The notes beneath the pieces were generated by a model. The model had not been told where the DNA came from. It was given only the letters and a program-made list of their open reading frames with translations, and ran no database searches. The position numbers were made by a program, and so were the translations under genes. DNA of 64,000 nt from Octopus sinensis (taxonomy: Eukaryota): contig NC_043000.1 of NCBI RefSeq assembly GCF_006345805.1, positions 85,746,001 to 85,810,000 of the forward strand, written 5' to 3'. Shown piece by piece: positions 14,027-58,700 of this stretch. The first letter of the stretch is position 1. Each line of letters starts with the position of its first letter.

Positions 14027-14135
14027 ATGGATATTGCTGAAAGTATGATACAGCGTTTTCGTGTTGGAGGCCGAAACAAAACTAAGTTTTCTCCTTCAAA
14101 GGAGGATATTCTAAACACGATAGAGCAATTTGGAG
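14027..14135 (+). CDS. TBC1D5: TBC1D5 first coding exon (MDIAESMIQRFRVGGRNKTKFSPSKEDILNTIEQFG)
   Basis: Polypyrimidine tract plus TAG acceptor (14024-25), ATG at 14027, GTAAGA donor at 14136. Phase 1 matches the next exon. The N-terminus is poorly conserved, so the assignment rests on splice signals and phase. Confidence 0.72.
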
Positions 14136-17100
14136 GTAAGACAGGTAAAGAAAAAAAATATTTTGCCTTTTTCACAATGAAGGCATTTTTGTTTTATATA
14201 TTTTTACGTGTCTCAATATACATATATTTATGCCTATTTGACCCACCATTTTAGCAAATATTGTGCATAGGATTTTCAGTTTAGTACTGAAGAAACAAGA
14301 GGTAACTTCCCAGCATGCTGGGAGTATAGTATAGTTTCGGCTGTTTTTTGAAGCCATTTCACTTCACATATAATGGCCTTTGGAAAGGCATTAATACTGT
14401 CAACTGTTATTTCTAACTCCTTCAAAATTTTGAAACTGTATGTCTAATTTAAGAAATGAAATTACATCACCCTTAAGTGTGTCAAATTTTCAAATATTTA
14501 GAATATGTTGATGGACATATACATACATATTTGTTTAGTGAATTTATTCCAAGAAACAAAACTTAAATATGTGAGAATATAAATCTAACCTGGAAGTTCA
14601 GCAGTAGCATAATGTGTATGTGTGTGTGCTTATATATATCTGTCTTTCTCCCATGCTGGCATTGGTTGGATAGTTTGACAGGATTCATCTGGTCAGAGGA
14701 CTGCATCATGTTCCAATGTCTACTTTAACATGGTGTCTATAACTGGATGCCTTTCCTAATGGCAACCACTTTATAGTGTGCATTGAGTACTTTTTTCATG
14801 GCTCCAGCACAAGTGAGATTACCATGAAGCTCACAAGACTAAGATCTAATTGAGTAGGGCTACAATAGAGGGGGAAGCAGCTTTATGCTAGGTGATGTAA
14901 AGTTGAAGTATGAGGGAAGTCTACCTTTTTGGAACATGTTTCTTACTGTAGTGGAGATATATGACTGCTCACATTATACGGAAGTTGGTGGGAGTAGTCA
15001 GTGTGTATTTGAAAAGAGAGATAAAGATGGTGGCATGTCAGGGTGGGCCCTGGGGAGAGGAGAATGGGAAGAGTGAGTGGGTAGGGGTAGCAAGAGTGTA
15101 TGGAGAGTGAGGCATGGTTGGAGATGGGGTAGGGGTGAAAATATATTGAATGATGAAGAAGCATCAAGGTGCTCAGTGATAAATATGAGTTATATGGAAG
15201 GTAGGAGGGAGTAGATGATGATTAGAGATTGGTAAGGATATAGGAGTGAATGTAATGAATGTTGGAAGGGTAATATTAACCATAAAGGATGGATGCTAAG
15301 TCAGTTGGTTCCTGGTATTGAAAAAGATAATTGGTATTATAGAAAAGATGATAGAATAGATAGTTCTGTCCTCAATTAATAGAAGCTGTGGAATACTGCA
15401 GTTAGGCAAGTGATAGTGAAATGAAAAGGTGGGGGTGGTTTGATGAGGAAATTAAGTGTGGGTCCCAATTGTGTATATAAACATACTTCCTGAACCTCAG
15501 TTTTTCTGTGATGGGATGGTTTCCTGAAACATTGCATATTGCCAGTTGTCCTTTATCATCTCATTTGTGAAATTCAAACTTCTGAGATCAGCCATCACAA
15601 CTTCATTCCATGTCTTCGTGGGTCTCACTCGTCTACAAGTTCCATCCACCTAAAGATTGGAGCCTGGTGCAGCCATCTGGTTCGCCAGCCCTCAGTCAAA
15701 ATCGTCCAACCCATGCTAGCATGGAAAGCGGATGCTAAACGATGATGATGATGATGGCCTCTAGCAGGTTGAAGCATGTTACTTTGTCTAGCTTTGAGAT
15801 CATACTGTGTTTATAGTATGACTTTAAAGGGATCTACTTTGGATGAAGTACTGCAACTTTTGGCCGCCATGGGTTTTGCAGTAAATCACTAAATCATCCA
15901 TAACTTTTGTATTATCCTCTTAAATTACACCAAAATCTCAGACAATAACAATTAATATCGCATTTATTCTCTGTGAAAATTATAGAATATAAAACAACTT
16001 TGATAAAAACTTATACCTACTTTTCTGACGAAAACAATGCCGTTCTGAACATTTTGACCGCAACTGTATATAATAATAATAATATTAGGGAGTATAACTC
16101 CAAACTTACAGAACCCTCTAAAATAAAATGTATATAATATATATTAATTTATTCTACTGCTTTTTATTTTATACATTTATTTTGATTCAAGATTTTATCA
16201 TTTAGTTCAGTAGTAGAACTATTGAAGGACAAAATTCTGTTTATGGTCAAAAATACACAATGTTTATTATCATTATCTTCTATAATTAACTCCCATTCAA
16301 TATTTATAAATACACACAAACACATAGTCAACAAAGTTTATTATAGAAAATAAAGATAATAAATCTCCTTGGGTATTTTTATTCTTATAGGAGTTGAACT
16401 CTTTGTCCTCTTCGTTCTACCATTGAACTACATGATAAAAATTATCAAAAAATTAATATATAAACAAATTATTTCGCAGGGCAATACACGCACACTCTAT
16501 GATCAGATATGTATAGGCTTGGTAGTACAAACAGGAATACATATATTTTAATTGGTAGAAGTTACAAAGTGACTTAGGCTAGTAGGCTTTTAACTTCTTT
16601 ATGAAATTGAAAGCTTTTTTAATGTCTTTAGCTTGGATATGCACAGACTTGATTGGTTCAAGATTTCAACAGAGCTGTAGAGTGTTATGAAACGTAGTTA
16701 GTATTAAGAGGTTAAGAAAGCCAACGTGTAATTGTCAAGATGTAGACCTTTGCTCTTAAAAGGTAAATACTTAGAGAAAAGCATTGTATTTTGGGCTGAT
16801 GTCTCTACCAGCAATACATGTTATATAGGACTTAGAAGACACTCTTTCAGAAGTTGCCTGTGTCATCACAACAGTTCTATCATCACCACAAGAAAAAGAT
16901 TTATTTGAAAGCAGATTTTGATACCACAGGACAAAGTAGAGCCAACCAGAATCTTATAGGAGTATTAGATAAGAAATTTAAGAAGGAATGAAAGTCCTCA
17001 TACTTCTGTCCAGAAAGTTTGTGCCGATTTTTGAAGGAAAGGAAAAGGTCAATAAATACTTGCCATTACATTTTTAATCAACCAAATATGAACCATTTTT

Positions 17101-34700: not shown

Positions 34701-37700
34701 TGGTGAAATACAGTCTTGGATCAAAATACATTGGAGGATGCTGCATTGTAGTCTTAACTAATTAGTGATAATTTAGAGAATTGCATGTAAAATTAGCTTG
34801 ATAATCACTAAATGCTAATGTTTTCCTGATTTTGTTTTAATCTAAGGTATAATGTGAAGAAAAACATTTTTTTTCTTTCTTGTAGCTCATAATAAATCCA
34901 CGCAAAGCTGTTGACTCTGCCCATGACTTATCTTTGAACAATCCACTGTCTCAGGCTGAAGAAGTAAGTTTCTTGTATTGTAAAAATCAAAATGTATATA
35001 TTGTGTATCATATAAACATTCATATAAGACTAAAAATTAATGTGCTTTGGTATTTGTAGCTGCTGAAAGTTAATAATCTTTGTTTTGTCTTTTTTTTTTT
35101 CAGTTTTAATTTTTGTACTGACAGTGCTTTTCAACCACTGGGTTTTGGGTTTAACCCCATTGTGTGTCACCTTTGGCAAGTGTCACCTATTGTAGCTCCA
35201 GGCTAACCAAAGCCTTGTGAGTGGATTTGGTAGATAGAAACTGAAAGAAACCCACTGTATATGTGTGTGTGGTTGTGTCTCTTTGTTTTGACATTGCCTG
35301 ATAGTTGTAAATGAGTGTCATCATCATATAAACGGTGTCTTTCATTTCCAATTTTCAAAAACCTGTCTAGCCAGGGAAAAAATATTACCTTACTTGGGAA
35401 CAAGTGAGGGATGATGACAGGAAGAATACCTGGATATAGACAACTTACCTCAAAGAATTTCACCTGATCCATACAAACATTTAAAAATAGACATTAAAAC
35501 AGTGGTACTATTGATGACTGAGATGCGAACATTGTTTTACTGGACTTCTAAATTAAAGCTAATTACCATATTGTAAAATATCAATGTAGATAATCACAGA
35601 CGCATAATGTATATAAAGATATAATGACAGTAAAATCAACATTGAAATCCTAATGTGCTATACTGTTTCTCTTCTCCGATTTGTGTGACAAATGAAGTAG
35701 GTTCCAAATCTTACTTAACAGTGGAAAACATATAAATGCAGTATTCCTACAAAAATGATTGTATAGTTGCTAGCTAGGGGAAATAAAAAAAAAATTAACT
35801 TCCACCATGTTTTCCATCTCCAATCTTTTGTTAATTTGAATTCAGCCATTTAGTATAGCAGACATTATGATCTATGGGATAGTAATTGTATGTACATCAT
35901 GAAGTTTATTAATCTACATCATTGCTGAATGGCTGCTTAACCTTTATAAAATATAATTACTTTTAATATGACACCGCTAATGTAATATTTGGACAGTGTA
36001 ATATGCTTATTGAAAACTTAATATTATAATATCACTGTAAAAGGCTTATCCAAAAGAAAGCCATATTTGCATGAGGTCATTTATTTCCAGCAAAGACCAG
36101 ATTGTCTTTATCAACATGGTAGCTATCTTAAATAGTAGTCACATGATATCGTAAACATGTAAATTGAGAGAAGCTTGCTACCAATTTAATTTATGTAAGT
36201 GTTCTTATCATACATTTGAACCTTGTTGATTGTATCACTATTTATCTAAAGACAAATATATGTTTACAAAGATTTAATCTACAACCTGGATTATCACTGA
36301 GGGGCACCTACTTTCAGTCTCTTATACTGCTATTCTAAAGGTTTCAGTACTTCTGAATTTGCATAGTGTATCTTCATATTATATATATACCACTTTTACA
36401 CTTGTCACTGTCATTTTTACTATTGTTTCTATCAGCACCATTTCAAATGTTATTCTATCTTTTCCAAGATGCTAGTGAGCAATAGTGGTACACTGTTTTA
36501 TATATAGTAGCAATATACTCTAATGGGTAGCATTTATAGAACTGAAGTAACTGTTTAGGGATAACTTATAGGAGCAACAAAAATCTAAGAAAATCTAATT
36601 TTGTGACTGACAATGAGTATAATGACAAATGTTTTATGGAATGCAATGTATTGAAAATGAGGTGAACAGAAAAATTAGAGTTTTGAATTTAATTTGTTTG
36701 TATTTATAAAAGACCTGAATATTTTGAAATCAGTATTCAGTTTTAATATTAGATGAAATAAAGAAGACAATTTATCAGTTTTTATTTGAAAAATATGGCA
36801 TTACTTAATCATTTCTAACCTTTCACTATTTTAGAGTCCCTGGAATCGCTTTTTTCAAGACAATGAATTGCGGCTTACCATCAAGCAAGATGTTATCCGA
36901 ACGTAAGATATTTAACATTCTATTAAGAGAGATAATTTTGATTCATGTAATGCTTGGTTGCTTTACTTTGTAAATAAACTGATTATTTTTTTGGTGTGCT
37001 CCTGTTAAGGATTGTTGGGTTACAATGGATGCTTAATATTAATGTACATGCAGTATTGTTAGAACATTGGATAGAACTTGTTGGTTCAGACCCTGCGGAG
37101 GTTAGTCTTGCCTTTTGTCAGGGTTATCATCCCTCTGCTTAGAATCATTGCTTACTCTCTCTTCTGTTCTTCCTCATTTATAGGGACCACTTTAGGGGCT
37201 TATCTTTGCAAATTATGAAGCAATGATCTTAAGAGCTGGTGCCATGAAAAAGCACCCAATGTCCTCTATAAAGTAGTTGGAGTTAGAAAGCTGTAGAAAC
37301 CATGCCAAAATAGACGTTGGAACATGAGCTAGTCCTTCAGACTCTGTCAAACTATCCAACCCATGGCAGCATAGAAGATGGATAATAAATAATAATGATG
37401 ATGATGCTAGTGAGATGGAATGTCTCATGTTATTTGTTCTAGTTCATATCCTGATGGTAATGCTAGTGATAACATTGGAGCCTAACTGGGTTGGTCCTTG
37501 CCTTCCTCTGGACAGCTGTTTGTCTGCCATACAACTTTACTCAGACATGCACTGTGAAGAGACACTGTCTAGATCCATTTCCCAGAATGAAATACTCAAA
37601 ACACTGAAAGTATTGTTGGGATTTTGACAGGAAATAAGAATGTGTGTGATGGAGAGATAAAATATTTATTTCTACCAAAATAATAAGAATAAAGTAAAAC

Positions 37701-40700
37701 AATTTGGTAATGTGCAGCATATATTAAAAAAAAAAAAAGCTTCATATTTTCTAAGCCATAATGTTTTGTTGGGGTCTGCATTGTATGCAAAGGCAATTTA
37801 ATGTTATAATGTGGGGGTTTGATGTATGGGAGCCTGCAGTTTCATTATTCTCAGCTTGGCCATATTATAATGGGGCTGTGCAAGTGAGAGCCATATGGAG
37901 AGATTTTGGACTGATACTGTCTAATAGAAGTTGTAAGCCAGGTTTTGTAAAGCTGATGTGCTGCGTATAGACACACTTCTGGTTTGCAAATAAAGCAGCA
38001 AGAACTAAGTCCATATCAGGCTTACTAGAGAAGCTGCTTGGAGAGATCTGATCTCACAAAACAATGGCACCAAAATTAAAGTTATAAGGCCTTTTTATAG
38101 TCATGGTTGCAGTTCCTGGACAAGGAGTGTTTTGGCAAGTACTTTGTAAGGTATTTGTTGTCCAGTGACCATGAACAACACAATGTTTGTTGCTTTAGTC
38201 AATGTCCTATTTGAACAGAAGGTGAATAAAACTGTAGCATTTGATTTACCCTACGCTTACTAATAGAAGTATTTCATCAAAGTGAGGACTCTGTATCTGG
38301 ATAGCCAAACCTTTCTGGAAACAAAAACTCTGCACCACTGTATTATACAGCAAGACATGTAAAAATGAATCTATGCACACTTGGCAGTTCAGTAATTTTT
38401 ATCTTTTCATTTTGTTGATAAAACTGAAATGCTGATAGTCCTTGAAACATTGTCACTTATTTAAAATGTTTTCTAAGCTGGTTGCTGCTGGCTAATTGAT
38501 GTAGTTTTAACATACAAGTAAAGTAGTTTTGCTTTTAGCCCACTATCAGTATAGATTCAGCTTTAGCTTTATATATATATATATATATATGTATTTATTT
38601 ATTACAATAGTCTTGCCAGATTCACCATCTCCTCACTTGCACAATGTTCTACTTCAGATTATCTACTAAATCCTAAATTGTCTTCAGTTTCACTTTCCCA
38701 AGATTTATCTCTTTTGGAGTTCATCCTGATCCTGCTTGCTTGTAAGAATTCAAAATGGTTATTAACTGCTTTGTTTGTTTAGGAATGTCTGAAAAGTCTA
38801 GTGGCACTGCTCCTTTGATTTTGATGTAAAAACAACTAGAGAAAAGTTGATAATATTTATCCTGAAAGAAGTTGATTAATTCTTTATATTTGAATAAGAA
38901 AATTGTATGATGGGGCATAAATTTTTTAATTTTCTGTCAGTCAGTGAAGAAGCCAAATGTATTTCATCAGTTACATTATGAAATGTGTTTTGTTTCCTCG
39001 GCAGTTGTTCATATTTTAAATTAAACTTAAATTATTTATATTTCACAAACTTCTCTACTGTGTCTTTAAAATCTATCTGATCTCAAAGGAAAGATCTTAC
39101 TCAATTCATACTCATTATTTTAGTAAAATTATTTTCACTTTTAATTAGATCTATTATCATCATCAATTATTAATAATTTTTTAAACTTTCAAGAAAGAAA
39201 ATATTCGTTTGTCTCAAAGACTATTAATGAAGAAAAACTTATCTTTTAATTCTGTACAATTCAGTACTCCTTCCTTTATTCCTTATTGAATATATCAAAG
39301 AAGACTGTCTGTATATAGTGTACTTCTGCTATCAATGAAAATGAATATTTTGGCTCATTCATGTGATGATGGGTAGTTTTTGAATTCCAAACAAAGCAGG
39401 TAGTGAACAGAAAATAAATACTTTCCGAATTTCTTTGAACTGTTAAAATGATAGATTAAGAAATATCTAAGAGAAAGTAAAATTTTATCTATTTATTTGA
39501 TGATTATCAAGTAATTTTCGAAGAATGAAGTTAGGCACAAGGTAAGTTTTGTTTTTGTTCTCAAATAATTTAGTATAATCTTTTTAATTTTATATTCTGG
39601 AACTTGCTTATATTTATATTATATTCTGGAACATGCTTATTGATTTAAGCTTAAAGCTTATATTGTCAATAAATACATCCATTTCATCATTTTACAGTGT
39701 GCTTTAAATGCTTTGTTTTGTCTTTTTTTTTTGTTTTTAAAGTTTTGATTTTTAATTCCATTGTATATTTTAACTGAATTCTAAGAAAAGCTGTTTCATT
39801 ATTGAGCAATAATGTACAGTGATGAAATTATATGTTGAAGCAACATCTCTGATAATACTTCTTGTTTATCGAGTATTTTTCTTCATATTGTAACTTAATC
39901 ATACTGTTCTTCTATAATTTTCATTTGTTGCTTTTAGGGAAGTTTGTTAAACTGTCCTCTTTGAAGTCAGACTAATTTTAATAATTCTAGAGCAGTTTTC
40001 TTTTGGTTTTAGATTAGCAAATTGTCTTTATATTTTTATTATTTTTTGTTTTAGTTACCATTTTAGTTTTTACAACTTTTGGTCAGACTCAGTACTAGCT
40101 CCCCAAACTCATAAACATTTATATCATATCTTCACTCATTTGTCACCATTCTCATAGTTTCATACAATATTGATTTTTGATGCATATCAATATTTCTTGG
40201 TGAATCTAACCTAATAATATACATTCAACAGTGCAGCTGAAAGAGTTTTAAAGAAAAAATCATGCAAATTATTTCCTTGAACCACTTTTACAGTTTTCCT
40301 TTTAATTGTGCTGTGTTTTTGTTGAAAATTATGGTTGTTGGATGACTTTGATCTTGTCTACTTCAAATGTTTGTTTTCAAGATATACCAATTTTTAGAGT
40401 TAGTCCGTGTCATTATTTCCTTAGGATAGTCAGTTATGTTACTTTGATACATCAATTTCTGCACTTGGATTGTTAGCTTCAAAATTTCATTTAGCTTTTA
40501 ATTATCACAACTTAATTTTCAAACTACATTTGTAGGAATAGAATATTTGTGTAAGACATGCTCCATAATTTGAGTCTCTTAAATTCGAGAGAACATTAAA
40601 TTTAATTAGTGTGTAACAAGTGTATGTTACCTTCATTTCAAGTGTGGCATAGTATATTTTGTTTTAGATGTATGAAGTGGGGAAATAAAACCAAAAGTAA

Positions 40701-43700
40701 CTCAAATTACTACACTTAATTTTAGATCATTTGCCAGGACAAAGGCTCTGTAAATTGAAAATATGTAAGGTGAGAATATTTCAATTGAGTGTAATTTATA
40801 CGCCTTAAATATAAAGGTATTATGAAGAAAATTTAATAATTTATACTCTGGAGTTTACAGGCTACTATTTAAAAAGAAACAATTTTTAATACTCTCTCAC
40901 TACTCATTCTAAATTCTGATTTGTAATTGGAATGATGTTCTATTTTACTTGCATAAAATATTTTCAACAACATTGCTGAGTAAGTGATATATGCATTCTT
41001 TTATGTTGTGAAACACTACACAACCTATTATGAAATTTTTAGTAGTTGTAACATGACTTGCTCTTTTGAGTTATAAAATTGTTTAGAGTTTCTTCTTGTT
41101 GAGAGGGGAACTTCCAAACTTAGGGACACAAAATAATAGTTGCAGTAGTAGTTGTAATAGTGGGAATGATGATGTTTGCACTCATGGGTCATGTAGCCAA
41201 GCAATCTAATAAACACTTCAACCACTGCACATCTCAATATATCTGCATATGTTTAACCAACTCTTTCTTGAGTTTTGAAGGAAAACAAATCTAATTTGGT
41301 AGACTTTTGATTAAAAAAAAAAAATTATGGTTTCTTTTGAAATGAAAGAAATTTTGTTTTCGAGCAGTTATATATATATATATTTCAGTTTTATCAACCA
41401 TCTTGTTGAGTGAGGATTTAAAAATATAAATCCTTTCTCTGGTGCTCTAGCCTCTTCATTACATCATTGACTTATGTCATTTTTTTACTTCTGTTCCAGT
41501 TATCCTCGAATAGAATTTTTTCAGTCTAATCAAGTGCGAAACATGATGGTTGATATTCTGTTTATTTATGCCAAGCTGAACGTTGACTTGTCCTATAGAC
41601 AGGTTACTATTCAATTTTATTTCTCTTCTCTTCTCAAAGCTAAGTCTGCCATTCTTGTGTCTATTGCCATTGTAGCTAGCTGCACATTGTACAGCAGCAT
41701 GTCTCCTATCAATGTTTAGTTTTTTGCATGCATATGTCCCTATCACTTTTCAGCATGAGGTGGTTATACATTGAGGGAATTTACTTCAGATTTACTCTCA
41801 GATATTTTGAACATTGTTTAATATTTAACATTTCACTTAGAATATAAATATTTAGAAAAAGGTATTTCTGAAAAAGTGATAAAATTTGATAAACCTACTT
41901 CAAATTAAAAGTGAAATTTTGATTGCAAAGTTTGAATAAACTTTGTGTAAAGATTATATTTTATTATTAGATATATCAGTAATAAATTACTGTTATATTT
42001 TATAATTAACTAGTTTTGTTAAATATTAAACTAAAATTGTTGGGAATGTATCTTTGCAAATTGTGTAGTCATTTACCTGAAATTCTTAGTAATGATAGTT
42101 AAATATATTCATTTATTATAATAATGATTATTATTATTGTAGTTTAAGTTGCAAAATGTAAGTCATGATTTGTGACTAATGTTGATAAATAAATCTTTGT
42201 TTAGAGTTTTGGTCTATATTTTCTGCTTTTCCAATTTTAAGAAATTATTGTATGATATATAGTTAATAATTTATACAGAATAATCCCCTCTAAATTTGTT
42301 TCAAGGTATTTCATATATTTCCACAAAAATCTTATTTCCTCATTATAATTTGCTATATTATACCTTGTACTCAAAATATAATTTAGCTCTAAGGTTTTGT
42401 TGTTAAACCTTTATAAGAACATGCTGTCAACTTCTTTCACTATCTTGTATAATGCTATCTGTTAATTATTAGCACCCAGAGAAAAATCCTGATTAGCAAC
42501 TTTTCCCTTTATAATTACTAGTCATGTTTGAGCTATTTTATATGTTAGGTCAGTGGTGTCAGATGTATTGCTTTTTATTTCTCATTACCATACTTGGTAT
42601 TTAATATTAAAAGTAGTCATTTCCACATAAACATTATTTTTTGAAACTTATTTTCTGCTCAATTACTGGCCCAAACTACTTCCAATTGATGTAACTGATG
42701 AGGTTCTTTGCATGTCATAATTAATTCATTAAAAGTCTGCATTTCTGTAATATCTATGCATAAAGTTTTCTTTTTGTTTGCATATTTAAATATTTAAAAA
42801 GCTTCTATTCAAAACAAAATTATCTTCAACTCCTACTGAATATAAGTTGAAAAGTAGACTTAGGATTATTTACTTGAAATAACCCCTAAAGGTTGTGGCT
42901 TTTCTTATGAAAGCATATTCACTTTAAAAACATTTAAGAGATCCTTGCTGCAATGTTAATATTATAACCTCAAATTACATAATTAATTTTTAACATACTG
43001 GAAGATTGTGTAAGTGATTTCTATTATAGCCTCAGGGTTAGTAAAAACTTGCAAATGAAATTGGGTAGATGGAAACTATAAAGAAGTCTGTCAGATATGT
43101 GTTCGTGGGTGTGGGTTGAATAACATCAGTGTCCAAATAAAAAAAAAAAAATCAAAATATAACCTTGCATCTCCTTTTATCCAGTAAACCCTTTCTTCAT
43201 TATGAGATAAGTATGAAGTTCACTATAATTGACTAAAAACACTTGAAGCTGCTGCCTTAGCAGTACTTAACTGAAAACAGCAAAAAAACATAAGAACATA
43301 CTAAGATTTTGTTTCTTTCTTACAAAAACATAAGCTATGGACGTTTTATATACCATTTTGATTTTAGTCCATTGTTTGTTTTTATATGCTATGCATATTT
43401 TGTATTGACTGCCCATCAGCGTCTTCATTGTTATCAACTGTTGATGAGAATTTTTCCATATCATTCTTTTTTGTCTGGAAAATCCTTAGCTTTGTAGAAA
43501 AAAATCCTGTTGGCTGTATCTTTTTTTTTTCTGTTGTGCATGGCCAAATATGGAATATGTGGAAAGTGTTGTATCTTGTTGAGGATATGATACTTCCCTA
43601 GTACTGGTGGCATGAAAAAAGCACCCAATACAGCCTGTAAAGTGGTTGGTATTAGGAAGAGCATCCAGCTATAAAAACCAAATGGAAATGAGATGTGGGT

Positions 43701-46700
43701 TAGATGAGGTCTTCCATACTCATCTGAGTGAGCTGCCCTGTTCAATTCATGCTGACATGAGCAGTTGTAAAATGGTTATGCTGATGATTTATATTTCTTG
43801 TATGCATGACATTGGTGAGAAAGGATGGTATATAGTGCTGATATCAGCATTTGATGCTGTTTGTAGTATTGTAATAAGAGCTCCTTGGTTTAGCTTAGCT
43901 GTCTAGCATGCAATTGGAGCCATAGCCTGTATTCAAGAAAATATGTATAGTGTTTAGGGGAAAGTTAGTAGATATTAGGGGACAGGGGGAATCTCACTAA
44001 AACTAATAAAGAATTTAATTTTACTAACATAAAATCTTTAGGAAATTAAATATTCAAAGAAACTTTTTTTATACTAATTTGAATTTTCAAAATTTCATTT
44101 TACCCTGTAACCAATATTTGCAGACTAAACTGATTCTTATGAAATATTTTTATATTAGACTATAGGAAAAAAGACCAGTTTATGGCTTATTTTTCTGTTG
44201 AGAGAAAAATAGATTTCATTGTTTAATATTTATTGTGTAATCTCTGCTGGGGTTTACTTTGCCTTTCATCCTTAATGAGTAATAGTTAGTCGACTTACCT
44301 CCCCCACAAACCTGCTGGTTTCCTGCCAAAATTTGAAACCAATATTTATTATGTAATTAGATGTGATAAAGAACTGAAAGTAGCAATTGCTGATCAAATG
44401 AGATTCTGGTTTGTTCTGCATAAATTCTGCTTTAAGTCTTAAAGAAACTTGGATTTTTGGCTGTGTCAAGAGACTGAACATTATATAATAGTTCCTGTGG
44501 AAAGAAAATGAGAGTTTGATCTGACTGGTCTATGTCTCAGCAATAATACCTGATAATGACTGCTAAAATTACAACTTAGATATTGTAGTTCATCTGTTAA
44601 AATGTTATGGGTTCTTGTAATAAATTGCAAAGAAGTAGTTTATATTTAGAATAATTGATTTATTAAATGACTATTGCTTGATTTGTGTATGGCCTCTATG
44701 TTGCATACTCTGCTAATACCCCAGTGAGAAAGAGAGAGAAGCTGTAAGATTGAAAAAGTGAAACCAATACTACTAAGTTTATAAACTTTAAATGATTGCA
44801 AATTTGTTAATAGCAAAAGATGTTAGTTTATTATTTCTGATTATATTATGTTACTTGTGAGTATACCAAAGTAGTTTGAATTTTGATTAGAGCAAAACTT
44901 TTTGCTTTCAGGATTTCTTTACTACATATTTTACATATTTGTGTACTTGGAATAGTTCCCTAACTACTAAAAGCAGCAGTGACTTGTGGTAGTCATCACC
45001 CTTCCCCATGATAATTATCATCAGTAACCATTTAACATCTGTTTCCATGATGTTGAGATGAAATAGATGCTTGTATGTCATCTGTAACTAATCCAGTGCA
45101 TTTTTAACATCTTCAAGTGTAAAGTTGAGCAAGTCTCTTAAGCAGTCTTTTGATATTTCTTCTGTTAACTCCAACTCAAAATTTTTTGGTGATTCTTGTC
45201 TCAATTTCTTTCTTCATTTGGCAGAACTCTAATCTGAGATTTAATTGCTTGTCACATTTATGTCTTAACCACTGATTATAATTTCATGCAACTGAAATCT
45301 TTTTCAGTGTCTATGAAAAACACACCATTTGCTATTGTGAATAATTAAAATAAAAAAGAAAAAGAAAATTGCTTTTCAGTGTTTCTAGATATTGAAATCC
45401 TCACCGATTCCATTTTAATAAATATATATTTCTTCTTTTTAGTGTTGTAATCTTCCATGTTGTTTGTCATTTTTTCTTTTTGTTGTAGCATGCCTTGAAT
45501 ATTGTGGACTTAGTCAAATTTCTACAACTGCCTCTTGTTGCTTCTGTTTTTGTTGGTGTCCAGGGATATGCTTTGTTTATGTTCTTTTCTTTTCCTTCTA
45601 GTTTTCCTGAGATTCCTTTCTTCCAATCAGACCAGGTTCATCAACTGATGGTTAATGTGTTGTTCTTATATTGTCGCAATGATCAGATGAAAACTCATTT
45701 GTCATACCGACAGGTTGGTTTCACTCCTCTTTATACGAGTTCATGATATCCTACAACAGGACGAGTGATGTTACATTCTTTCAGTAACATTTCTTTATCA
45801 CTGTACTACTTAACTGGATTTTTACTAAAGAAACATTATTAAACAAAGATATTTTTATGTTTGTCTATTTGGCTCTCTCTCTCTCTCTCTCCCAAAATGA
45901 AATGAAAAAAAAAGTAACCTGAGACATCCAGTGGACAGTTTATTTTCCAAGCATAATGTCATTTTGTTTTAATAATAATGGTTTACAGTAAAACCCTACA
46001 AAAATATCTTTAGTAAATAATATTGTAATTTTAATTATGTTGTAAATATCACTGAAATTTGTCTAACACTGGATATTGAGACAAATGGTTACAAGTACAA
46101 AAAATGTTTGTTTAAAAGAGAGAGAGAGCTGCATCTTCTAGAAGAATAGGCACAATTTTGTTTAATCTTTGTTTCTTGATTTTATTTTTGAACTTTCCAT
46201 AAAATTGTTTTTGAAACCACATCTAATAGGTAATATTTTATTGGAGCCATTTCAATACCCTTAACAGCAATAGGTATGTTTATAGATACAAACCCTTTCA
46301 AAATCCTAAATGTGATTTTGTACTGAATTCTTTAAAGTAGCAAGTAAAATATATAAATGGAGTACTGCTATTTTATAATAAATTAAACTTATTTGGCAAT
46401 GTGGAGTGATTTTTCTTATACTGCATATTCCTATTTTCTGCAAGCATTATTGCTTAGCTTATTAAGTGATGGTCAGAATAATAATTAAATTCTTAATATG
46501 ATTAATTTCCTTAGCCTTTATAATCATCACAAATTTATCAAAGTGTGCTGAAGTAAATTTTTGTATATTAGAAAGAATAGCATTTAACATACATGCATGT
46601 TTTCTGTAAAACTACAAAACTCTAAGCACCAATTATTTCTGAGGGATCTTCTGAAGATTATGATGATTTTAGAAGTAAGTTCCATCATGAATTGTAACCA

Positions 46701-49700
46701 TTTAATCCTTTCCCCAATGCCCTTTCTAGTGTTTGTAGTTGGTTACTATGTTAAACTAACACGAGTGTGTGCACAATAACTTAAACCATTCTCAACTATG
46801 AGACTAGTGGTGGTCTGCATTTGTAAAATTCTGTTCAGTAAAAACAAAAAATTTAAGTATGTTATAGTGCTGTGAGTTGAGGAACTGAGGTATGAAATAT
46901 TTCTTTTCCTTACGGCACCCTAATATACTGTAGTTTTTTTCACTTTTTGCTGAATCTAGACTTGGTTTGGTACGTATATTATTTTCTTCAACTTCTCTTT
47001 TCAAAGATGATAAATCTACTAATCCTTAAAAGATATTCTAATAATTTGAAAAAAAAAAGTTTTATTATGTAAATTATCTCCATCAACGTTATTGTACAAA
47101 TATACATAAATAAAAGTGAATGTTGGGTGGACAATTCGCTTGAAATTATTTTTTCTTCTTCTTTAAATTTACAATTTATAGCCGAGAGTATCTAATTAAT
47201 CTAATCGTTAGCAAAGACTTTCTCAGTCTAATTTCTTTGTGGAAATTGAAATTTTGCTGTTTCTTGTATAGACATATATTAATTTCAAATATAGCTGTTT
47301 CTTGAACAAACATATATTAATTTCATATACATATTGTAAAGAGAGTGACTTAGTGGTTTGATTATTTAATATGGAGCTAATGACTTGCATTTAAAGTGCA
47401 AGAGCAAGTACAATAATACTGTAATTGGATAAGAGGTGATTGGTGGTAGTGGGAACTGAGTGTTACCAATATTAATGAAAATCTTGAACAACTTGGACCC
47501 AATCCACATAGAAATAATGTAGTGTCCACCATAGATAGGGCTACTATGCTGGCCACAGATATGGCTATCACAATACAGTCATATGACTCATCCATCTTTA
47601 TGAAATCACAACAAATAAGGCATCCTCTTTGAAGTCTCCAGGAATTTACTCACATTTTGAAAGTAGGTAAAGAAAATTCTTGATTTTTATCTTCTAATTT
47701 AACGTTCTATTCTTTTTTTAGCTTCTTTTCTAAATTCTTGTGATGACAAATTTTAGCTGATTAATATTCTAAATACATGAGCTTAAAAATTTATCATAAT
47801 TGTATTTAAAAAAAACCCTCCCAAAATAGCCATTTCACATTTGCTAATTTAAATGATACCCAAATAGTGTTCAAATTTTCTTCAGATCACACCCTTTACT
47901 GTTAAAAGACGCCATTGAGTATGGAATAATTTATAATTAAGTTTGTAGGATTGAGGTTGACTTGAGGCTAAAGAATAAAATGTAAAAATTCTATTTCGAA
48001 CAAAATGTAGCACTGCTACAATGATTAACTAAATATTTTGCTTCAATATTTTTAGAATTTTAGGAGTGATTGTATTCAATAATTTGTTTTCATATCCTAT
48101 TGTACGCTGTTGGTCACATGATAATATTTAAAAGCCCAAACTCATTCTTTAAGGTTCTTGTCTGAAAAGAGGTTTATAATATAATTTATCTTTAATTCTT
48201 AAACTAGCATTGCAGTGTGTGTGTGTGTGAATGAATACATTTTGTTTACATGATTTTGTTTGAAAAGTTTTAAGCTAAAGAAATAGCAGCAGCAGCATGT
48301 GTTTAATTTTTGCTGTAGAATAATTTATAACTTGCTTGCATGGTCCTTATTTGGACATGTGCATGTTTTGGTTAGAATTATACTTAAAAGTAGTTAAATG
48401 AAATGAATTAATTTTCTGACCTTGCTAGTCTGTTTTCTTTTAAATTTTTTTGTAAATCTTGTGATGATAACTTTTAGCCAATTAATATACTAAATACATG
48501 AATTAAAAAATTTATGGATCAAAAATGTATTTAATAAACCATACCCAATTTTATGTTCTCAAATTTAATTGATATCAAAATAATGGGATACAAATAAGCA
48601 TATTGAACTTAATATAAAAATCAAATCATTGTTGATTAGTGATTGTGATTTCATTTTTTTAACAGATAATTAATATTATAATGAACATTTTGCTTGCATC
48701 GTAGAGTAATTGGCTGGGCAGAATGTTGTCATATGGCTTTTGTTTCATTGTCATCATTCAGATTACCTACAAACTATTGCTCAGGTTCCTTTGTTGTAAA
48801 TGAAACTATAAGAAATTTATCATAGTAATGTTTTTACAGTGTCTTCAATTTAGACTGGGTATATTTCTAAACATGATTCAACGGAAATTTAAAGTGAAGA
48901 TTTAATAGGAGTGGGTGTTTAGATTTATTTATTGTATTGTTTCTCTCTTCAGTGTTAACTTATAAAGTTTAGCCTTTAAATAATATAGGACAAAGAGAAA
49001 AAAATGAATTTATATTTTTGAAGTTTGTGGTCTTGTCTGCCTGTTTCTCTAAATTTCAACTAATATAAAACTTTTAATATAATATTTGAATATAACTAAA
49101 GGCTATATTAAATATTCTTTGTTATTCCCTCGTTTTTAGTATATTAATGTTTATATATCTACATGTTTTAATGTAGTCAATGAAATACTTATAATGAAAT
49201 AGTACACTTACAGTTTGTGGCTTATGATGAATAAGTTTTTGTGGCTTATGATGAATAAGTTTTCATCCGTTTTTCAAAGTGTGACAACTTAAAAAACAAA
49301 CTGAAGGCAACAAATATGTCTCTTGTGAAGTTTTCATCAGAACATCCCATGACTTTTTGATGACCTGGTCAGACATTTAGTGTTTTTCCTTCCTGCATGT
49401 ATTGTTGTAGTTATGTCATACACTGTTTTTGATGCATGAGTGTTGTTTATCAAATTTATTGACTTTTTGCATAGATATGTTGCAGATTTATTATTATTAT
49501 TGTTATAAGTGTATGTTTTAAATTCCTATATCATTAAATAATCTATAAGGGATTAATGCCCTCTTTGTTGTGTTAATAAATTAACTGGCTATCAAATGTA
49601 AGTATCTGTGTCATATTTTGCCTGGTGCTTTTCTTCTATCACTTTTTCAGTAAATAAATAAAACTTCTCTAAGTTTGGTAATGTGAACATACAGAAATGT

Positions 49701-52700
49701 ATTTGAAATGATTTATTTTATTACAGGATCACTTATTGTTTATGAATTTCATTGATAAAATTTTCAAAGTAATTAAATTTTTTTTTTTGATATGTCAACA
49801 AAGTTATCAACACAGCCTAAATGAAAATATTGGATTTAAATTATATTATGAAATAGCTTGAAGTATATGTATAATGTTATAAAAATAAGGTTTAGAGATA
49901 ATAATTCACCTTTTAGATGGCTAGCATTTGAAGCATCAAACCTTTTTTAAAGTCATAAACATATGTTTAAAAACTGACAATATTTTTTTGGCAGTGGTGT
50001 AGCAGAAATATTAAAACAAAGCACTTGGTTATGTTTCTTTACATTCTGTGTTTGAATCCCACATATGTTGACTTTATATTTTACCCTTTTGAGATTGACA
50101 TAACAAATATCAGGCATCCATTTAACTCTTTTGTTACCATATTTCTGCTAAAATACTTTGAATTTTGTTTTAATTAATTTAAAAAATAATGAAAAATTTA
50201 GTAAAGCAACTTTGTCATAAAACTAGTGTTTAGAATGTAAATTAACATAAAATTTTGACTCTAAAATGGAATTTGTATTATAGTACCTGGGGCATCTTTG
50301 GGCAGGTTGGTATCAAATGGGTTTAATCAATTATTTCAAAATCTATGACTTATACTTTATTGGAGTAATGGGTAGTGGAATCAGTAGTGCCAGACAAAAT
50401 GTGCTGCAAGTTACATCCCTTTACATTCTACTTTCAAACACCTAAGTTCATTTTGACCTTCCATCCTGCCTTCTGAGATTGATATGATACACCAGTCAAA
50501 TAGCATAATCAATGAAATGAGGGATTATATCCCTTATCCAAAATTTATGGCCTTTTGTCAATTTAAGAAATATAATAACTTGAACTGTTATTGTATGATA
50601 CAATATTTAGTTTTGATCGTTTTGGCTACGAGTTCAAATGTCATTAGAAATTATTTGTGTTGTTTCTTCTCAAATCAGCACATTAATGTTAATATACCAT
50701 CATTAATTTAATTCTTTGAAAAAAACCCAATAAAACACACATTTTCGTGCTCTAATGAAAATGTCATAAGCATTCTTAGTTTGAATTATTGCAGGTTAGA
50801 AGATGGAGGAAAAAAACAAAGTAATCATTCAATGACTATTATTTCTAATGGAATACATTAGTTGTATATTTCAATTAGTTTTGGATATATTCTGGAATTT
50901 TTGTGAAAACACTAATGTTTTTCATTATTAAGTTGTTAACATTGTGTTTTACATAAAATTATAAGAGGCCTTAACTAGGAATGCTTTAAAATGAGTTTTA
51001 GTATCAGAACTGAGGCTGGTATCAGTGGGTGAGGCTACTAGAATCCACCTCCAACTATACTGAAGCCACACAGTTGCACATACTATCTAAGTATCTAGAA
51101 GCATTGTTCTGCCCTTCTCTTCAGCTTCACTTCTTTCTTATTTTGTTTCCTTGTTGCAGCGTTTTTTTTTTTTTTTTTCACTTTCCTTTTATTCTCTCTC
51201 TCTTTTTTTAGTTTTACACTTAACACTTTTGATGCTAACCTTTCTGAAACTCAACACCCCAGTTCTATGTTAAAAATATTCCTATGATCTAAGTTAAGAC
51301 TTAAATTAAAGTGATCTAAATTAAAACCTACCAACATATAGGCGCAGGAGTGGCTGTGTGGTAAGTAGCTTGCTTACCAACCACATGGTTCCGGGTTCAG
51401 TCCCACTGCGTGGCATCTTGGGCAAGTGTCTTCTGCTATAGCCCCGGGCCGACCAATGCCTTGTGAGTGGATTTGGTAGACGGAAACTGAAAGAAGCCTG
51501 TCGTATATATGTATGTATGTGTGTGTGTATATGTTTGTGTGTCTGTGTTTGTCCCCCTCGCATTGCTTGACAACCGATGCTGGTGTGTTTACGTCCCCGT
51601 CACTTAGCGGTTCGGCAAAAGAGACCGATAGAATAAGTACTGGGCTTACAAAGAATAAGTTCCGGGGTCGATTTGCACGACTAAAGGCGGTGCTCCAGCA
51701 TGGCCGCAGTCAAATGACTGAAACAAGTAAAAGAGAGTAATATTTCATGTTAATTTATATTCCAACTTGATTATGAGAATGTTTTATTAATTTTTTTGTT
51801 TTTTAAAAAATTGATAGATAGGCTGTGTATTTCAACATAAATATTTTGACAAAAGCATTAAAATAAATTATTGAAATAAGTTATTTGTGTGTTAAATAAA
51901 AACATATTTGGTACACTTAAAGTTATATGAATGAATTCTGTACAAAAGTGACTTTGACTTACATTTTTGCTATTGTCATTTTACTGTTTATAAAATGATT
52001 TTTGATTTTGTCTTGTTTTATTTGACAGTGGTTCACAAAAAACAAAAATACAAATATTCTTTAAATGCTAACACTGTAATGATAAAGGGATTTTAAAGAA
52101 TTTTAAAAACGTTTTTATTCAAACTAGGGAATACTAGTCTTATTAGTTATGGCTTTCCAATGTGCCAATCACTTATTCATTGCTTTTCTGATGGTGAAAA
52201 TGACAAAGAAGTGCCTGTATCTTGATTCAGAACAAATATCCCAAAGGACAGTGTTCACAGAGCACAATTTTCTTTTTGGTGATAGGGGTTCTTGGTCACT
52301 ACTGTTTATATCCTTCACTAAAATACACAGATGCACTCAGTTGGCTTCTACACAGTTTCCATCCAAGACATTGGTTAACCCAAAGCTATAACAGAACATA
52401 CTTGCCCAAGGTGCCATGCTGTAGGATTGAACTCAGGACCATATGGGTATGAAGCAAGCTTCTTAGCTGCACAGTTGTGTTGCTTGTTGTTGCAAACAAC
52501 TTATGTAATAAATATAAAATTGGATTCTTTAAATTAGGTTAATTTTAATGTAATTATGCTAACATAATTAGCCTATGTTAATTATATATCAGTAATTAAT
52601 GATTATATACTTACAGTCTTTATTTATAACATTTAAATACAAAGAAACAGGAAAAAAGATAGATAAGAAAGGAAAAGAAAAGGGGGGTGTAAAGCAGCAG

Positions 52701-55700
52701 GAGGGGGAGAGGGTAATGAGCCACATACCCTAGAACAAATAGTGTGGTTAGTCATGGAGAATGGCTGGCAACATTTGCTGCAGCAGCCATTCCACCTCAC
52801 AGGGCTCATTTCTTCAATGGGCCACTGTTATCCCTATTTTTCAAAGGAAATCCATAGTATAGGGTCCTACAACCTGGTGTCTCAATGGTGACTAGCACAA
52901 ACTGATAGCAGCTAGTCAGGCTAGTCCTATTTTCGAAATCACCTCTCACTTCTGATATATTGAATAAAGAAATGCTCACAAAACATTGGAGAAAACTTCA
53001 TTAGACCCATATGTTTACACAGTTAGAGGTAAACTGTAATCATCTACATCTCATTCCTACAAAAATTGGTCTTACACTTGATTCAAATTGTTCAATATAA
53101 CCTGAAGAAATCCTATAATTTTTTAACCTTCCACTTAATCCTCATTTTTGTGTCTCAGGTTTTTGAAGTGTTAGAGCAATTTTTTTCTTTTTGCTCGGAT
53201 TTTCCAATTTACACTTTAAGTTCTTTCTTTGGGGTTTAAAATATAGACAAAAAAAAATTATATCTCCCATATTAATTTCTTTAGGATTATTTTAATCATA
53301 ACTATATATGGTAAAAGAGTAGGTGCAATATAGCTAAATGGTTGACAAGTTAGCTTCGCATCTGAGGTCCTTGATTTCATCCCATTGCAGGGCATCTCGG
53401 ACAAATGCCATTTTCTATATCCTTGGTTGATCCATATCTTATGAGGTATCTGGAAACTGGATAGAGGCCTGTGAGGTAGATTATATCTGTAATTCAAAAT
53501 GTACAGCCTTGTCACACAATGTGTTATGCTGTTTCTGCCTCAGAATTACATTATGATTCCACATATCTCTGGGATGCTCAGTCATTTACACATTAATTCA
53601 AGAGCAGGTAAATTGAACAACTGAATCTGCATTGTTGAACAACAGAGATCCACCATATCATATACTGAGGAGTAGAACAAATACAAGATAAACTGGTTTA
53701 GTTAAGTTTTTGTTTTGTATGTTTGAGGGAAGAGTGAACTGGGAGAGGGATAACTGAAGAAGAAAAAATAGTCCTTCAGTTAAATGTTACTATTATAGTC
53801 TTCCAAACTCAAGTTGTTTGATGTTTTATTAGGCTGTGTGACTTTTTTTATATTATGGTACTTTTGATTAGGTAAGAGATGCTGCCTTAAATGTATGAAT
53901 TTATATTGAAAGTATTTTTTCATTTAATCAATCTGGTAGGAAAAAAAAATGAAAATGGGAATAAATTAATATGTAATCTATTGCAGTTAATATTACGTTT
54001 GTTTGATTCTAGAAATGTTTGTTAATTATACTTACCTGAATTATTGTAATGATGTTCTTGATTAGAAATATCTTACTTACCAAACATGCTTTCTTCAGGG
54101 TATGCACGAGCTTTTAGCACCATTAATATTTGTACTACACTGTGATCATCAAGCATTCCTTCATGCGTGTGAAATAGAAAGTATTGGGTAAGTAATTTTT
54201 TTGTTACCTTTAATTGGTTTTGTTTTATTCAAATTACATTATGGTAAGACCATCTTGTGGGTTTGCTTTCTGGATTATTACTATTGCAGTTTGAGCTCGA
54301 GTGGCCAATAGCTTTAACTTAAATTGATTTGATATTTAAAATTCTGGGGAATATTTACTTTGAGGCCATTCGCCTGGCAGGTTTGGTAAAGCCATTTGCA
54401 ATATTATTCAGAGTATATAATGCTGCTCTATCAGAGCCCTCTCTGGATTAATAAAGTCCTTGTCAATTCAGTGATGCTTACAGTTGAATATGTCCAAATC
54501 TTAACCAACTAAAATCTAATGTTTAATTGCTCTTAACACCAACAATAATTGTAAGATAACCAATACATATTATCTGTATATAATGTTTATGGTAGCAAGT
54601 GTTTAAGATGATGTACTTACATCTATGGTTACATCAATGTCTAACCAAATGGTAAGATATACTACTAATTGTGTATTAGTAATTTTGCCATCTCAGTAAT
54701 GTTAGTTTTTTTTCTTCTTTAATATGTTAATGAGATTGAAAATTTACTAATGACTAACATTCAAAAAGAAAATCTATTGAATTTATTACTTTTATATTGA
54801 AATTCACACATCATTCATTTTGAAACTTGGCAAATGAAATCATTTTGGAAATAGATTTTAGTTCTTGTTAGTATGGCTTCACTGGTTGGTTGGTATTAAT
54901 AATGGAATAATTTCCATCAGAGTTACTGTCATTTTATTTTTATAGCCTTCTACTGAAGTATTAGGGAAGTGATAGCCTATATTTATGACACCATCTGTCT
55001 ATATGCTTTGAGAACATATTCAAATTGACTAAAGTAAAACTATCTCAGAAAATCAAAAAAAAAATAATTGCGACAAATATTTATTTGAAAGTTAAACCAA
55101 AAGATATTTCAATAGTATGTCATAAAATGTTATTCATTCATGTCTATGTATTTGTAAAAGACAAGCTGAGTATTTCTTATGTCTAATTCTTGCCTGGTAA
55201 CTTTCAAATTAAATTCAAGAGAATCAGTAATTCCACCAAACACAGTAGACATTAGTTATGGTAACTCATTGTATATTCTAAGTTTAGATATTGATTTATC
55301 CAGTTGGGAATATTTTCAATCAGATCTGGATCAGATTTTGTGGAAGTATGTAAACTACATTTCATCAGGTGTACATTTTGTTTTAATATATTAATATTGT
55401 AATGTCTCGTTTGTTGATATGTGACTAAATAATAAATACAGAATTATTAATATCATAGTCCACTCTTTGGTAGAGTTATGTTTGGATTGACTGAAAATTG
55501 TTAGATTATTGATATTGAACCTGATTGTTTTTTAAATCTTGATTCAAAAGTTTGATATAGAGCTGTGTATCCAAATGTAGAAATTATAAATATGATACTT
55601 GGAAATCTCTCATTTGTGGTTTTTCAGAGATAGGTAGTTTTGGTTAATGAAATACGAATTGCTGTCTGATGAGTTCAAACCCTGTTATGGACCAAATATA

Positions 55701-58700
55701 GGCAAAACATATCACTTGATTTGTTTCTGTCTGCCTTGTAGAGAATAGCTATTGCCACCTCATAATTGAGAGGTAACCATTAAAAGTTATATTTGCCTGA
55801 TACACATGAAGTTCTTTCATGTTAATGATGGCTGAGTCATTGTTTTTGCTCAATTTACTGTGGAGTCAACAACTTCCAGTGTTGTTAACATATCATCCAC
55901 TAGTTGGTTGATAGACTATTTTCCACTGTACTTCAGTGATTTGAAATTGGATCACTCTGTCTTTTCCAGGGTACTTAAGCAATTTGAAATAGTTACTCTG
56001 TTTTGGATATTTTACAGACAACATTGACTATAATAATTGGAATCTTTAATGTAAAATCTTTGTGTAATTAACTAATTATACTAACTTCTAATGAATACTT
56101 TGAAATGTCCAATCAAATCAAATGTTATATTGTTGGATTTTTTTTATCCTAACATTACCTCCTTCTATTGTGTTCAAATCTCTTTTATGCTGCCTTTCTT
56201 TTGAAAGCTTCATTTAAACTGGCCATTTCTGGCCCAAAATGTTCTACCTGTTTTATGGTCAAAGTGGTCAAATCTGGCCTCTTACACCTACCTGACAATG
56301 TCATTCAAATCATATTTACATTATCAGAATCTCAAAGCTATGATTAATTCAAAATAATGTGAATGAATAAGTATTACAATTGACAGAGGAACCTGAATGC
56401 TAAAGGGTTAAACATTCATTCTATAAAGACATTGTTCGCATTCACTTCCTAAAACTTAACACAGTTTTTTGTTTTATTTTAATAGTCATTAATCATTGCA
56501 CTGTAAACTATTTGCTCAAATTTCCAGTTCAGTGTCTTGTAAATAGGGTAGAAGTAGTTTATAAATCTTACTCAAAGGAACTAAAGAGAAAATGTTGAGT
56601 TTTGAATTTCTTGGACCAAGGCACTAAAACCCTATTCACTTAGATTTTTTTTTTTTGACATTTCAATTTCTTAATTGTAAATAATAACTCAACAGTTGTT
56701 AGAAAATTTATGTGATTCTTAGTGTTAAAGTATATTTTTCTTTCGTTGGTAAAGAATGTTTGAGAAACTTAGCAACTGTATTGGATGACAATGTAAACTT
56801 ATTTATTGCTTTTTATTGCTGATAATTTGTAGCTTGATTTTTTTTTCTTCAGTTGCTTAATTTTTGTTTATTTGTTTTTTTTTTTTGTGATCGTTGTTTT
56901 AACATCTTTCAGCCTTACACAAATTACCGAGAGGTTAGCATTTTGATTATAATTGCTTTGTTTCATTTATACTGCTTTGCTGGTTCTGGACTTAAACAAC
57001 ATTTCTTGACAAAAACATGTTTTCCTATGATGAATGTCTTTTCTGAAGAATTACCCGAATGCACTGGAATTAGTTACCAATTTTCTCTGAATTTTATCTT
57101 ATTGTTTATGTCAAAACTAATAGGAATTTTAGGTTTATTTTTTTCTTTGCATGCCTGTTTTTTCTTTACAAGTGCCTTGTTTTCCTTCCATTTCCTGGTA
57201 GACTCTTCAAACTAGCTTTTTTTATAATATATATATATATTTATACATATATATATATCTAAAAGCACTACAATATTCACATAAGCTTTTTTTATTTAGT
57301 ATTTTTTAGTTAACTGTTTTGTTTTTAAATCCTTACTTTAGAAATTACTTTTAAATATTTGAATATTAATAACGTAGTGAATATTGATAATGTATTCTCT
57401 TGTGATTGAATACAAATTCTTAAAAATAAATTTATAAATAAAATTGAACATTAATTTTCCTAAAATCTATCAGGGTACATCATTTAAACTTGTTTGTATT
57501 GAGATATTTGGAAGAATCCCCATACAGACAACTAAATTAACTTTCTGATTATAAATGAGGTTTAACAATTTTTTATGTATTAGTTATTGGAGTGGGGGCC
57601 ATAGATAAGTTGTATATCAAATACTTATGGGAAAAATAATTTTTCATGAGAGGTTAACTCTTTTATTACATTCTTAGCCAAATATACTTCATGTATTTTA
57701 CTTAACTTTGGAAATAATTGAGAATTTGAAGAAATTTAGTAAATTAATCAGTTTCATATTACATTGATGATTGGAAACAAAGTTTCTTGTATGATATTAT
57801 GGTGGAATGTTTTGTATGGTAAAAACACAATCTCAGGCTGGTTGGTATCAAAAGGTTTAGAAACATTTTTAGATGTTGATATTGAAGTTTTTCACATTCT
57901 TGAAGGGTTCTGTGTATGTTTTTGGAAGGATTATATCTTTAAAAAGATTGGAAATGCCAGTATTTCTTTCTCCATCTATCTGTTTCTCTGATTTTCATTT
58001 TGAAAATATCAAGTTACATTAATTTGATATTTTTACAAGAAAGCATGCAATTTTTATATGTCTATTATAAAAAAAGCCCATTTTATTTGTTTTAAACATA
58101 AATATACTTCAGTAAACTGAACAAAATTTTTAGATGAAAATCATTTAAAATCCATCCATCTTTTCCACTTATTATTTCTGGAATGATCATGGGGGTAGAG
58201 TCATCAGGTACTTCTTTCATAGGTTCCTGTCAGAAATAACTATCTTTAGATTTTCCAGCTGGATTTCCAAGAGTGACCAACTGAGACTATAGATATTATC
58301 CAACCATCTTGTTTTTGGTCTACCACTAAGTCTCCAGCTGGTTGGCTCATCTTGAAGAATCTGTTTTGCAAGTCTTTTCTGTGGCATTCTAATCACATGT
58401 CCATTGTGTTGGAGCTGTAACCTCTCAGTGTTGAGAAGTAGCAGCTGGACCTGGAGAAACTTCCTGATCTTGGAGTTATGTATCCTTTTGAGTAATGTTA
58501 CTCCAGAGATCATTCAAAGGAACTCCATTTTGGCTGTTTGTATTTGCAGTTGTACACTTTTGGTCAATGAAGACAGTGTGTTTGGTTTTTTTTTTCCAAC
58601 CCTGTCTCTTCTGAGGATTGATTGCTGGAGCTGGTGCATTACTATGCCAGCACCTGCAATTCTAATGTCCATTTTAGCCTTCTGCTTATCACTCATGAAT

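Follow-up and report, generated by a model that had tools for sequence, protein, structure and literature searches.

An old pair of alternative exons between the catalytic fingers of TBC1D5 in octopus and other lophotrochozoans

The TBC1D5 locus of Octopus sinensis

The 64,000-nucleotide stretch of Octopus sinensis DNA analysed here (contig NC_043000.1, positions 85,746,001 to 85,810,000 of the forward strand; hereafter the window, numbered from its first letter) holds most of one TBC1D5 gene on the + strand, with exons that are near letter-identical to annotated models of Octopus sinensis, O. vulgaris and O. bimaculoides. Between two constitutive exons of this gene, U and D, lie two homologous alternative exons, A and B, which encode the segment that joins the arginine finger of the TBC domain to its glutamine finger and which, we are highly confident, form a real, used and old either-or pair. 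The four exons are as follows (nt, nucleotides; aa, amino acids).

36835..36902, + strand: exon U, constitutive, upstream; ends in the IxxDxxR motif (arginine finger), has a phase 2 donor and is spliced to A and to B in contigs
41500..41602, + strand: exon A, alternative, 103 nt, 34 aa; the derived copy, strongly conserved; ends in the glutamine finger
45602..45713, + strand: exon B, alternative, 112 nt, 37 aa; of ancestral type and faster-evolving; carries a 3-residue insertion seen only in Octopus and, like A, ends in the glutamine finger
54099..54187, + strand: exon D, constitutive, downstream, GMHELLAP; present as a single genomic copy

Exon D has one match only in the genome from which the window is taken. 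Exons A and B both carry a pyrimidine tract and AG..GT ends, run from phase 2 to phase 0, are open and end in SYRQ, and they share 18 of 34 aligned residues with a 3-residue gap. Their global alignment score of 93 compares with a mean of -14 and a maximum of 22 in 5000 shuffles, a tblastn comparison of B against A gave an E value of 6.6e-9, and no third exon copy was found within the window at E below 0.1 by the same program. The reading frames U-A-D and U-B-D are both open; U-A-B-D meets a stop at the third codon of B, and U-D meets one six codons on. A first-pass annotation, made from the sequence alone, had described the two exons, and its coordinates, phases, translations, SYRQ ends, residue identity and gap were all reproduced, while its argument that only one of the two yields protein held when the frames were recomputed.

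Both exons are spliced to the upstream exon

Splice joints were obtained from contigs of 4 of 24 public runs (four studies) placed on positions 36500-51700; the four runs (X5, X10, X22 and X23) are RNA by guess, none being on record as RNA, and contigs drop rare variants. The joint 36902>41500, which leads from U to A with GT..AG ends, was present in X5, X10 and X23, and the joint 36902>45602, which leads from U to B with the same ends and bridges A, was present in X5, X10 and X22, such that each of these two junctions, which are among the four put forward for checking by the first-pass annotation, occurs in contigs of three of the four runs. A contig of 2604 nt from X23 carries U followed by A and exits the stretch at the end of A without B. 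By run, the contigs hold B only in X22, A only in X23 and both exons in X5 and X10; as contigs drop rare forms, the A-only and B-only runs give no more than a weak hint of regulation.

These joints bear directly on the idea that one of the exons is dead or reflects an error of assembly, which we find scarcely credible. Exon B does drift and has a lineage-specific insertion, but both joints occur in transcript-like contigs of several studies, and B encodes an identical protein segment in the three Octopus species and is open in every pair examined; the joints and the pairs largely refute the idea.

Age and spread of the pair

To follow the pair beyond Octopus, the segment between the two finger motifs was cut from each of 264 retrieved proteins. 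The majority were of B type (171), followed by A type (55), A type with a 10-residue insert (17), B type with such an insert (3) and records holding both types (3), the remainder comprising 14 proteins without the region and 1 fungal protein. A and B types with identical flanks were found in 18 species and in one further, cephalopod-like pair (19 pairs). The species are the cephalopod Octopus bimaculoides, the gastropods Haliotis (2), Aplysia, Physella, Biomphalaria and Pomacea, the bivalves Mytilus, Ostrea, Crassostrea, Magallana, Saccostrea, Mercenaria, Pecten and Argopecten, the chiton Liolophura, the brachiopod Lingula and the nemertean Lineus. The pair is thus not peculiar to cephalopods, being present also in gastropods, bivalves, a chiton, a brachiopod and a nemertean. 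A pair from Bradybaena was left out of the isoform-pair count, although it is still included in the identity means given below, because its A and B records come from separate scaffolds and have unlike downstream flanks. The records concerned (Bradybaena similaris P0045 and P0047) represent two TBC1D5 paralogues, whose models contain A in one case and B in the other; if the exon missing from each model has been lost from that paralogue, a splice pair would here have been split into two genes.

An exon tree of 55 rows and 34 columns, in which the bootstrap was not fully settled, placed all 16 A copies on one side of a branch with support of 99/98, and the A group stayed at 92 in a quick tree with 12 more A-like exons added. 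As all A copies form one clade, the tree points to one old duplication, and the simplest reading is a single event before molluscs, brachiopods and nemerteans parted; this split, and hence the duplication, we take to be more than 500 million years old. Exon order agrees between lineages, with A preceding B in records that hold both exons (Elysia crispata, Lingula-like and Magallana models), as in octopus, and with A-type and B-type exons 206 nt apart, B downstream, in the genomic reading frame P0266. The proposal of the first-pass annotation, an old and selected tandem duplication used one copy at a time, is borne out by the joints, the single A clade and the shared pairs.

Sequence comparison indicates that the range of A-like exons is wider than the 18 species. 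Genomic reading frames P0266 and P0271-P0283 carry divergent A-type exons, with HTD for QSN at positions 8-10, and possibly represent the pair in further phyla. Only the B type was seen in records of the hemichordate Ptychodera (5), lampreys (12) and the crayfish Cherax (8), in which annotation gaps are possible, and a single B-type segment is present in the 12 lamprey records as well as in 2 ray records and 1 pipefish record. A metagenome scan yielded no locus with two exon copies among 80 loci kept of 513, these being mostly from fungi and protists, along with a small number of transcripts, as judged by sequence.

Several observations weigh against the working of the pair that is proposed below. 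The joins of A to D and of B to D are taken from annotated isoforms of three Octopus species and, for A, from the X23 contig that exits at the end of this exon. No A>B joint (41602>45602) occurs among the 15 joints listed of 22, and such a joint may be among the seven that are not listed. The short side of the U>A and U>B joints in X5 and X10 measures 28 nt. Three protein records (P0019, P0037 and P0221) show A followed by a whole or shortened B, and these we read as prediction artefacts. The A type was not seen, B alone being present, in records of Tubulanus (7), Littorina (6), Patella (5) and three annelids (5); annotation gaps are possible in these records, and the absence suggests that A may be dispensable in some lineages.

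Position of the swapped segment relative to the catalytic fingers

The TBC domain (Pfam PF00566) scored above cut-off in the A form, in the B form and in a form that combines A with an optional microexon, M (described below), and the IxxDxxR and YxQ motifs are present. The Ins1 loop with its NPL motif, which binds VPS29, corresponds to residues 168-192 of P0003 and matched PDB 5gtu_B with E values of 1.7e-4 and 2.8e-9. In the model of the A form (P0005; predicted local distance difference test, pLDDT, 79-95 over residues 191-260), the arginine ends a helix spanning residues 180-201, and exon A provides a loop, a short turn, a helix (211-227) and a loop to Q235. The modelled fold matched Gyp1 in its complex with Rab33 (2g77_A) with an E value of 3.3e-8 and a template modelling (TM) score of 0.76 of target.

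The catalytic pair is R343/Q378 in Gyp1 (available sections of PMC3676764) and R169/Q204 in human TBC1D5, the latter as cited by the first-pass annotation and confirmed in the accessible text of PMC6031384. The two octopus forms share both fingers, the arginine being encoded by exon U and the YxQ end being identical. As both catalytic residues are left unchanged by the swap, A and B do not represent two active-site chemistries, and the suggestion of two active-site variants made from the sequence alone is not supported in the form given. In two caenogastropods, Pomacea (P0097) and Babylonia (P0075), the end of exon A reads YQQ in place of YRQ.

The first-pass annotation had also emphasised finger spacing, which is 35 with A and 38 with B in octopus. 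The three extra residues of B are predicted to fall at the end of the helix before the glutamine loop. Spacing in solved TBC domains, counted by hand, is 35 in Gyp1 and TBC1D22B and 37 in TBC1D17 and RABGAP1L, and the 38 of B therefore need not harm catalysis. Across the 19 pairs, B is 34 aa long in 16, 35 aa in the cephalopod-like pair and Lingula, and 37 aa only in Octopus; because the 37-aa form is limited to Octopus, the spacing of 38 is recent and is not the old difference between the exons. Spacing was consequently ruled out as the main difference between A and B.

Exon A as the derived and more constrained copy

Although A keeps the length of the human segment, sequence comparison indicates that B is the ancestral type and A the derived copy. 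Exon B begins with FPE and mostly has cysteine at position 22, features shared with deuterostomes and arthropods, where the exon is single, and A is characterised by Y/H at position 1, R/K at position 3, S9, R13, V17, I22, A24 and K25. Mean identity is 0.80 for A and 0.51 for B, compared with 0.95 and 0.88 for the flanks (190 pairs), and A-A identity exceeds B-B identity in 119 of 120 pairs. Invariant positions number 15 of 34 in 19 A copies versus 8 in 16 equal-length B copies, with 9 of the 15 in A not invariant in B. Position 3 is R or K in 19/19 A copies and E in 16/16 equal-length B copies. Net charge over the first 14 residues averages +1.3 in A versus -2.4 in B and is higher in A in 19/19 pairs, an argument that is weakened by the shared origin of these pairs, which do not amount to 19 independent charge changes. 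The charge reversal in A falls just after the arginine finger.

A derived, constrained segment that joins the fingers and reverses charge beside the arginine is what could be expected if exon A retargeted the enzyme to another Rab, one gene thus supplying GTPase-activating proteins (GAPs) for two compartments, as the first-pass annotation mainly proposed. We regard such retargeting as quite unlikely, as the swap affects no more than 34 residues in a domain of about 370 and otherwise leaves the Rab-facing groove common to both forms. In addition, the usual view of mutually exclusive exons is that they serve to modulate a function, not to change it (PMC5740500, in the sections available), and the worm relative of TBC1D5 is described as Rab7-selective in the accessible part of PMC5105194.

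How exclusion may be kept

The lengths of A and B are both 3n+1, so that double use or double skipping soon brings in a stop codon, a long way ahead of the later junctions. Frame-breaking lengths, not divisible by three, are the commonest situation among human clusters of such exons (377 of 629; available text of PMC5740500). Two further candidate causes of exclusion were considered. Steric hindrance, which would require a branch point within about 50 nt of the A donor, is disfavoured; the A-B intron is 3999 nt long and the AG-free zone before B spans 36 nt. RNA pairing of the docking-site/selector kind was set aside provisionally, the best duplex between the flanks that precede A and B reaching -18.2 kcal/mol where the background was -20.7 +/- 3.4 kcal/mol. 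The score of a 10-nt complement between 41410 and 45395 did not stand out from background either, and no strong inverted repeat near the exons was present among the 25 longest of 332.

The frame logic also invites an account in which the two proteins are near-equivalent and the pair is kept so that splicing sets the level of TBC1D5 through decay of double-inclusion or double-skip messages. This would suit the early stops that follow from both wrong choices between two 3n+1 exons, and the free variation of B, at 0.51 identity, would suit it too. We consider it very unlikely, as the 15 joints listed of 22 include no A>B joint, and as the invariant positions of A, 15 of 34 with 9 beyond those of B, point to selection on the protein sequence of A, which counts against near-equivalence.

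Microexon M and other features of the gene

Two optional microexons accompany the pair.

39512..39541, + strand: microexon M, optional, 30 nt, phase 2-2; flanked by AG..GTAAGT and present in annotated isoforms of three Octopus species
56913..56933, + strand: a further optional microexon of 21 nt (7 aa), downstream of exon D and outside the A/B finding proper

Microexon M adds 10 residues, three of them basic, right after the Arg-Thr of the arginine-finger helix. It always occurs with A in the annotated Octopus isoforms, while the frames U-M-A-D and U-M-B-D are both open. M is without contig cover in the four runs, which says nothing on its use. An insert of 10 residues also occupies this site in records of the pulmonate snails Biomphalaria (together with A) and Physella (together with A or B), with little sequence likeness to M. 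In the model of the form with M and A, confidence is below 50 over residues 199-214, the arginine included, and 85-87 over the exon-A helix; because only 4 of 52 aligned rows carry the insert, the low confidence is weak evidence of disturbance.

The basic character of M in Octopus is also relevant to an account in which the swap alters a surface away from the Rab, such that the basic invariant patch of A would bind a new partner or an acidic membrane while the rate on Rab7 would be alike in both forms. Positions 9, 10, 13, 14 and 17, which vary in B but not in A, are mostly polar and lie at the predicted helix start, and loops of the TBC domain that bind retromer are reported to steer TBC1D5 (PMC5105194, accessible sections). 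Nevertheless, the retromer-binding Ins1 and Ins2, as described in the same sections, fall outside the swapped exon, and the sharpest differences between A and B, at positions 1 and 3, are two and four residues past the catalytic arginine. On balance we consider this account unlikely but worth keeping in view.

A 7-residue optional insert at the site of the second microexon is present in records of bivalves, snails, a chiton, Lingula, both nemerteans, Owenia and the hemichordate Ptychodera, with seemingly two such inserts in Mytilus and Pomacea, and by offset the site lies before human Ins2. Elsewhere in the window, annotated Octopus isoforms differ by three residues (GKT) where the first shared coding exon ends (about 14135-14143, +), consistent with two nearby donors, and an upstream exon (1185-1274, +) provides a 30-residue N-terminal extension in one annotated O. 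sinensis isoform. A repeat in the B-D intron (about 51336-51700) has very high contig depth in all four runs (4/4) and an inverted copy (52337-52465) 846 nt off, over 129 nt with 72% complementarity; it looks like a short interspersed element.

Proposed working

We give about an even chance to the proposal that the choice between A and B yields two catalytically intact Rab7 GAPs that differ in rate by tissue or stage, with M acting as a further brake. A single gene would splice in either A or B between the arginine and glutamine fingers, the choice being set by splicing factors, and double-inclusion messages would be cleared by nonsense-mediated decay. The swapped piece is predicted to take in the loop that follows the arginine helix, a core helix and the loop with the glutamine, and the A-specific loop and helix start may alter how both fingers meet Rab7, which is a substrate of TBC1D5 and of its worm relative according to the accessible sections of PMC5105194. 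Inclusion of M might weaken the enzyme further, by analogy with exon 23a of NF1 in a Ras GAP.

The tight conservation of A detracts from this proposal, as a new partner would account for it no less well than a change of rate would. A bolder reading, which we think rather unlikely, is that exon A, the derived copy, equips TBC1D5 with a second substrate or partner and that M yields a retromer-bound, little active form, with splicing by itself setting how long Rab7 stays on, perhaps in neurons. If that were true, A would be a natural swap experiment on what makes a TBC domain pick its Rab.

Comparison with known systems and significance

The TBC1D5 pair resembles other tandem-duplicated mutually exclusive exons in that the exons are homologous neighbours of the same phase, cover the same structural region and break the frame if joined. 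Very old pairs are known, such as the protostome-wide pair of the Ca-alpha1T calcium channel. Compared with the human and fly exon catalogues (PMC5740500, PMC9741552 and PMC8373072, in their available parts), the TBC1D5 pair differs in being seen in lophotrochozoans only and in lying between the catalytic residues of a Rab GAP. The supplements of these catalogues that were consulted, which are possibly incomplete, do not list TBC1D5; the TBC gene present there is TBC1D19, a weak candidate.

Octopus and human TBC1D5 are alike in the TBC domain, the NPL motif of Ins1, the dual finger and, in form A, the 35-residue spacing (PMC5105194, PMC6031384 and PMC5770787), and the accessible sections of these three human TBC1D5 papers make no mention of a splice isoform of this region. 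Exon 23a of NF1 and microexon M are alike in being optional in-frame exons inside a GAP domain, and inclusion of exon 23a, which is switched in neurons, lowers Ras-GAP activity ten-fold (PMC7878752, available sections). The comparison has its limits, as the two proteins differ in fold and substrate, exon 23a adds 21 residues versus 10 for M, and exon 23a is a cassette whereas A and B are a homologous pair. A literature search, with subscription journals mostly outside its reach, found no publication on the TBC1D5 exon pair. The exon class itself is well known, and the isoforms are already in automatic annotations, where they are unnamed; the interest of the pair lies in its place between the catalytic fingers, its age, its one-sided conservation and the added microexon.

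TBC1D5 times the inactivation of Rab7 on retromer-coated endosomes, and at least three phyla have kept two versions of the piece that joins its fingers in an otherwise identical protein. Exons A and B, with or without M, therefore offer a ready controlled set for the role of this segment in the rate and Rab choice of a TBC GAP, and the pair constitutes a splice character common to molluscs, brachiopods and nemerteans.

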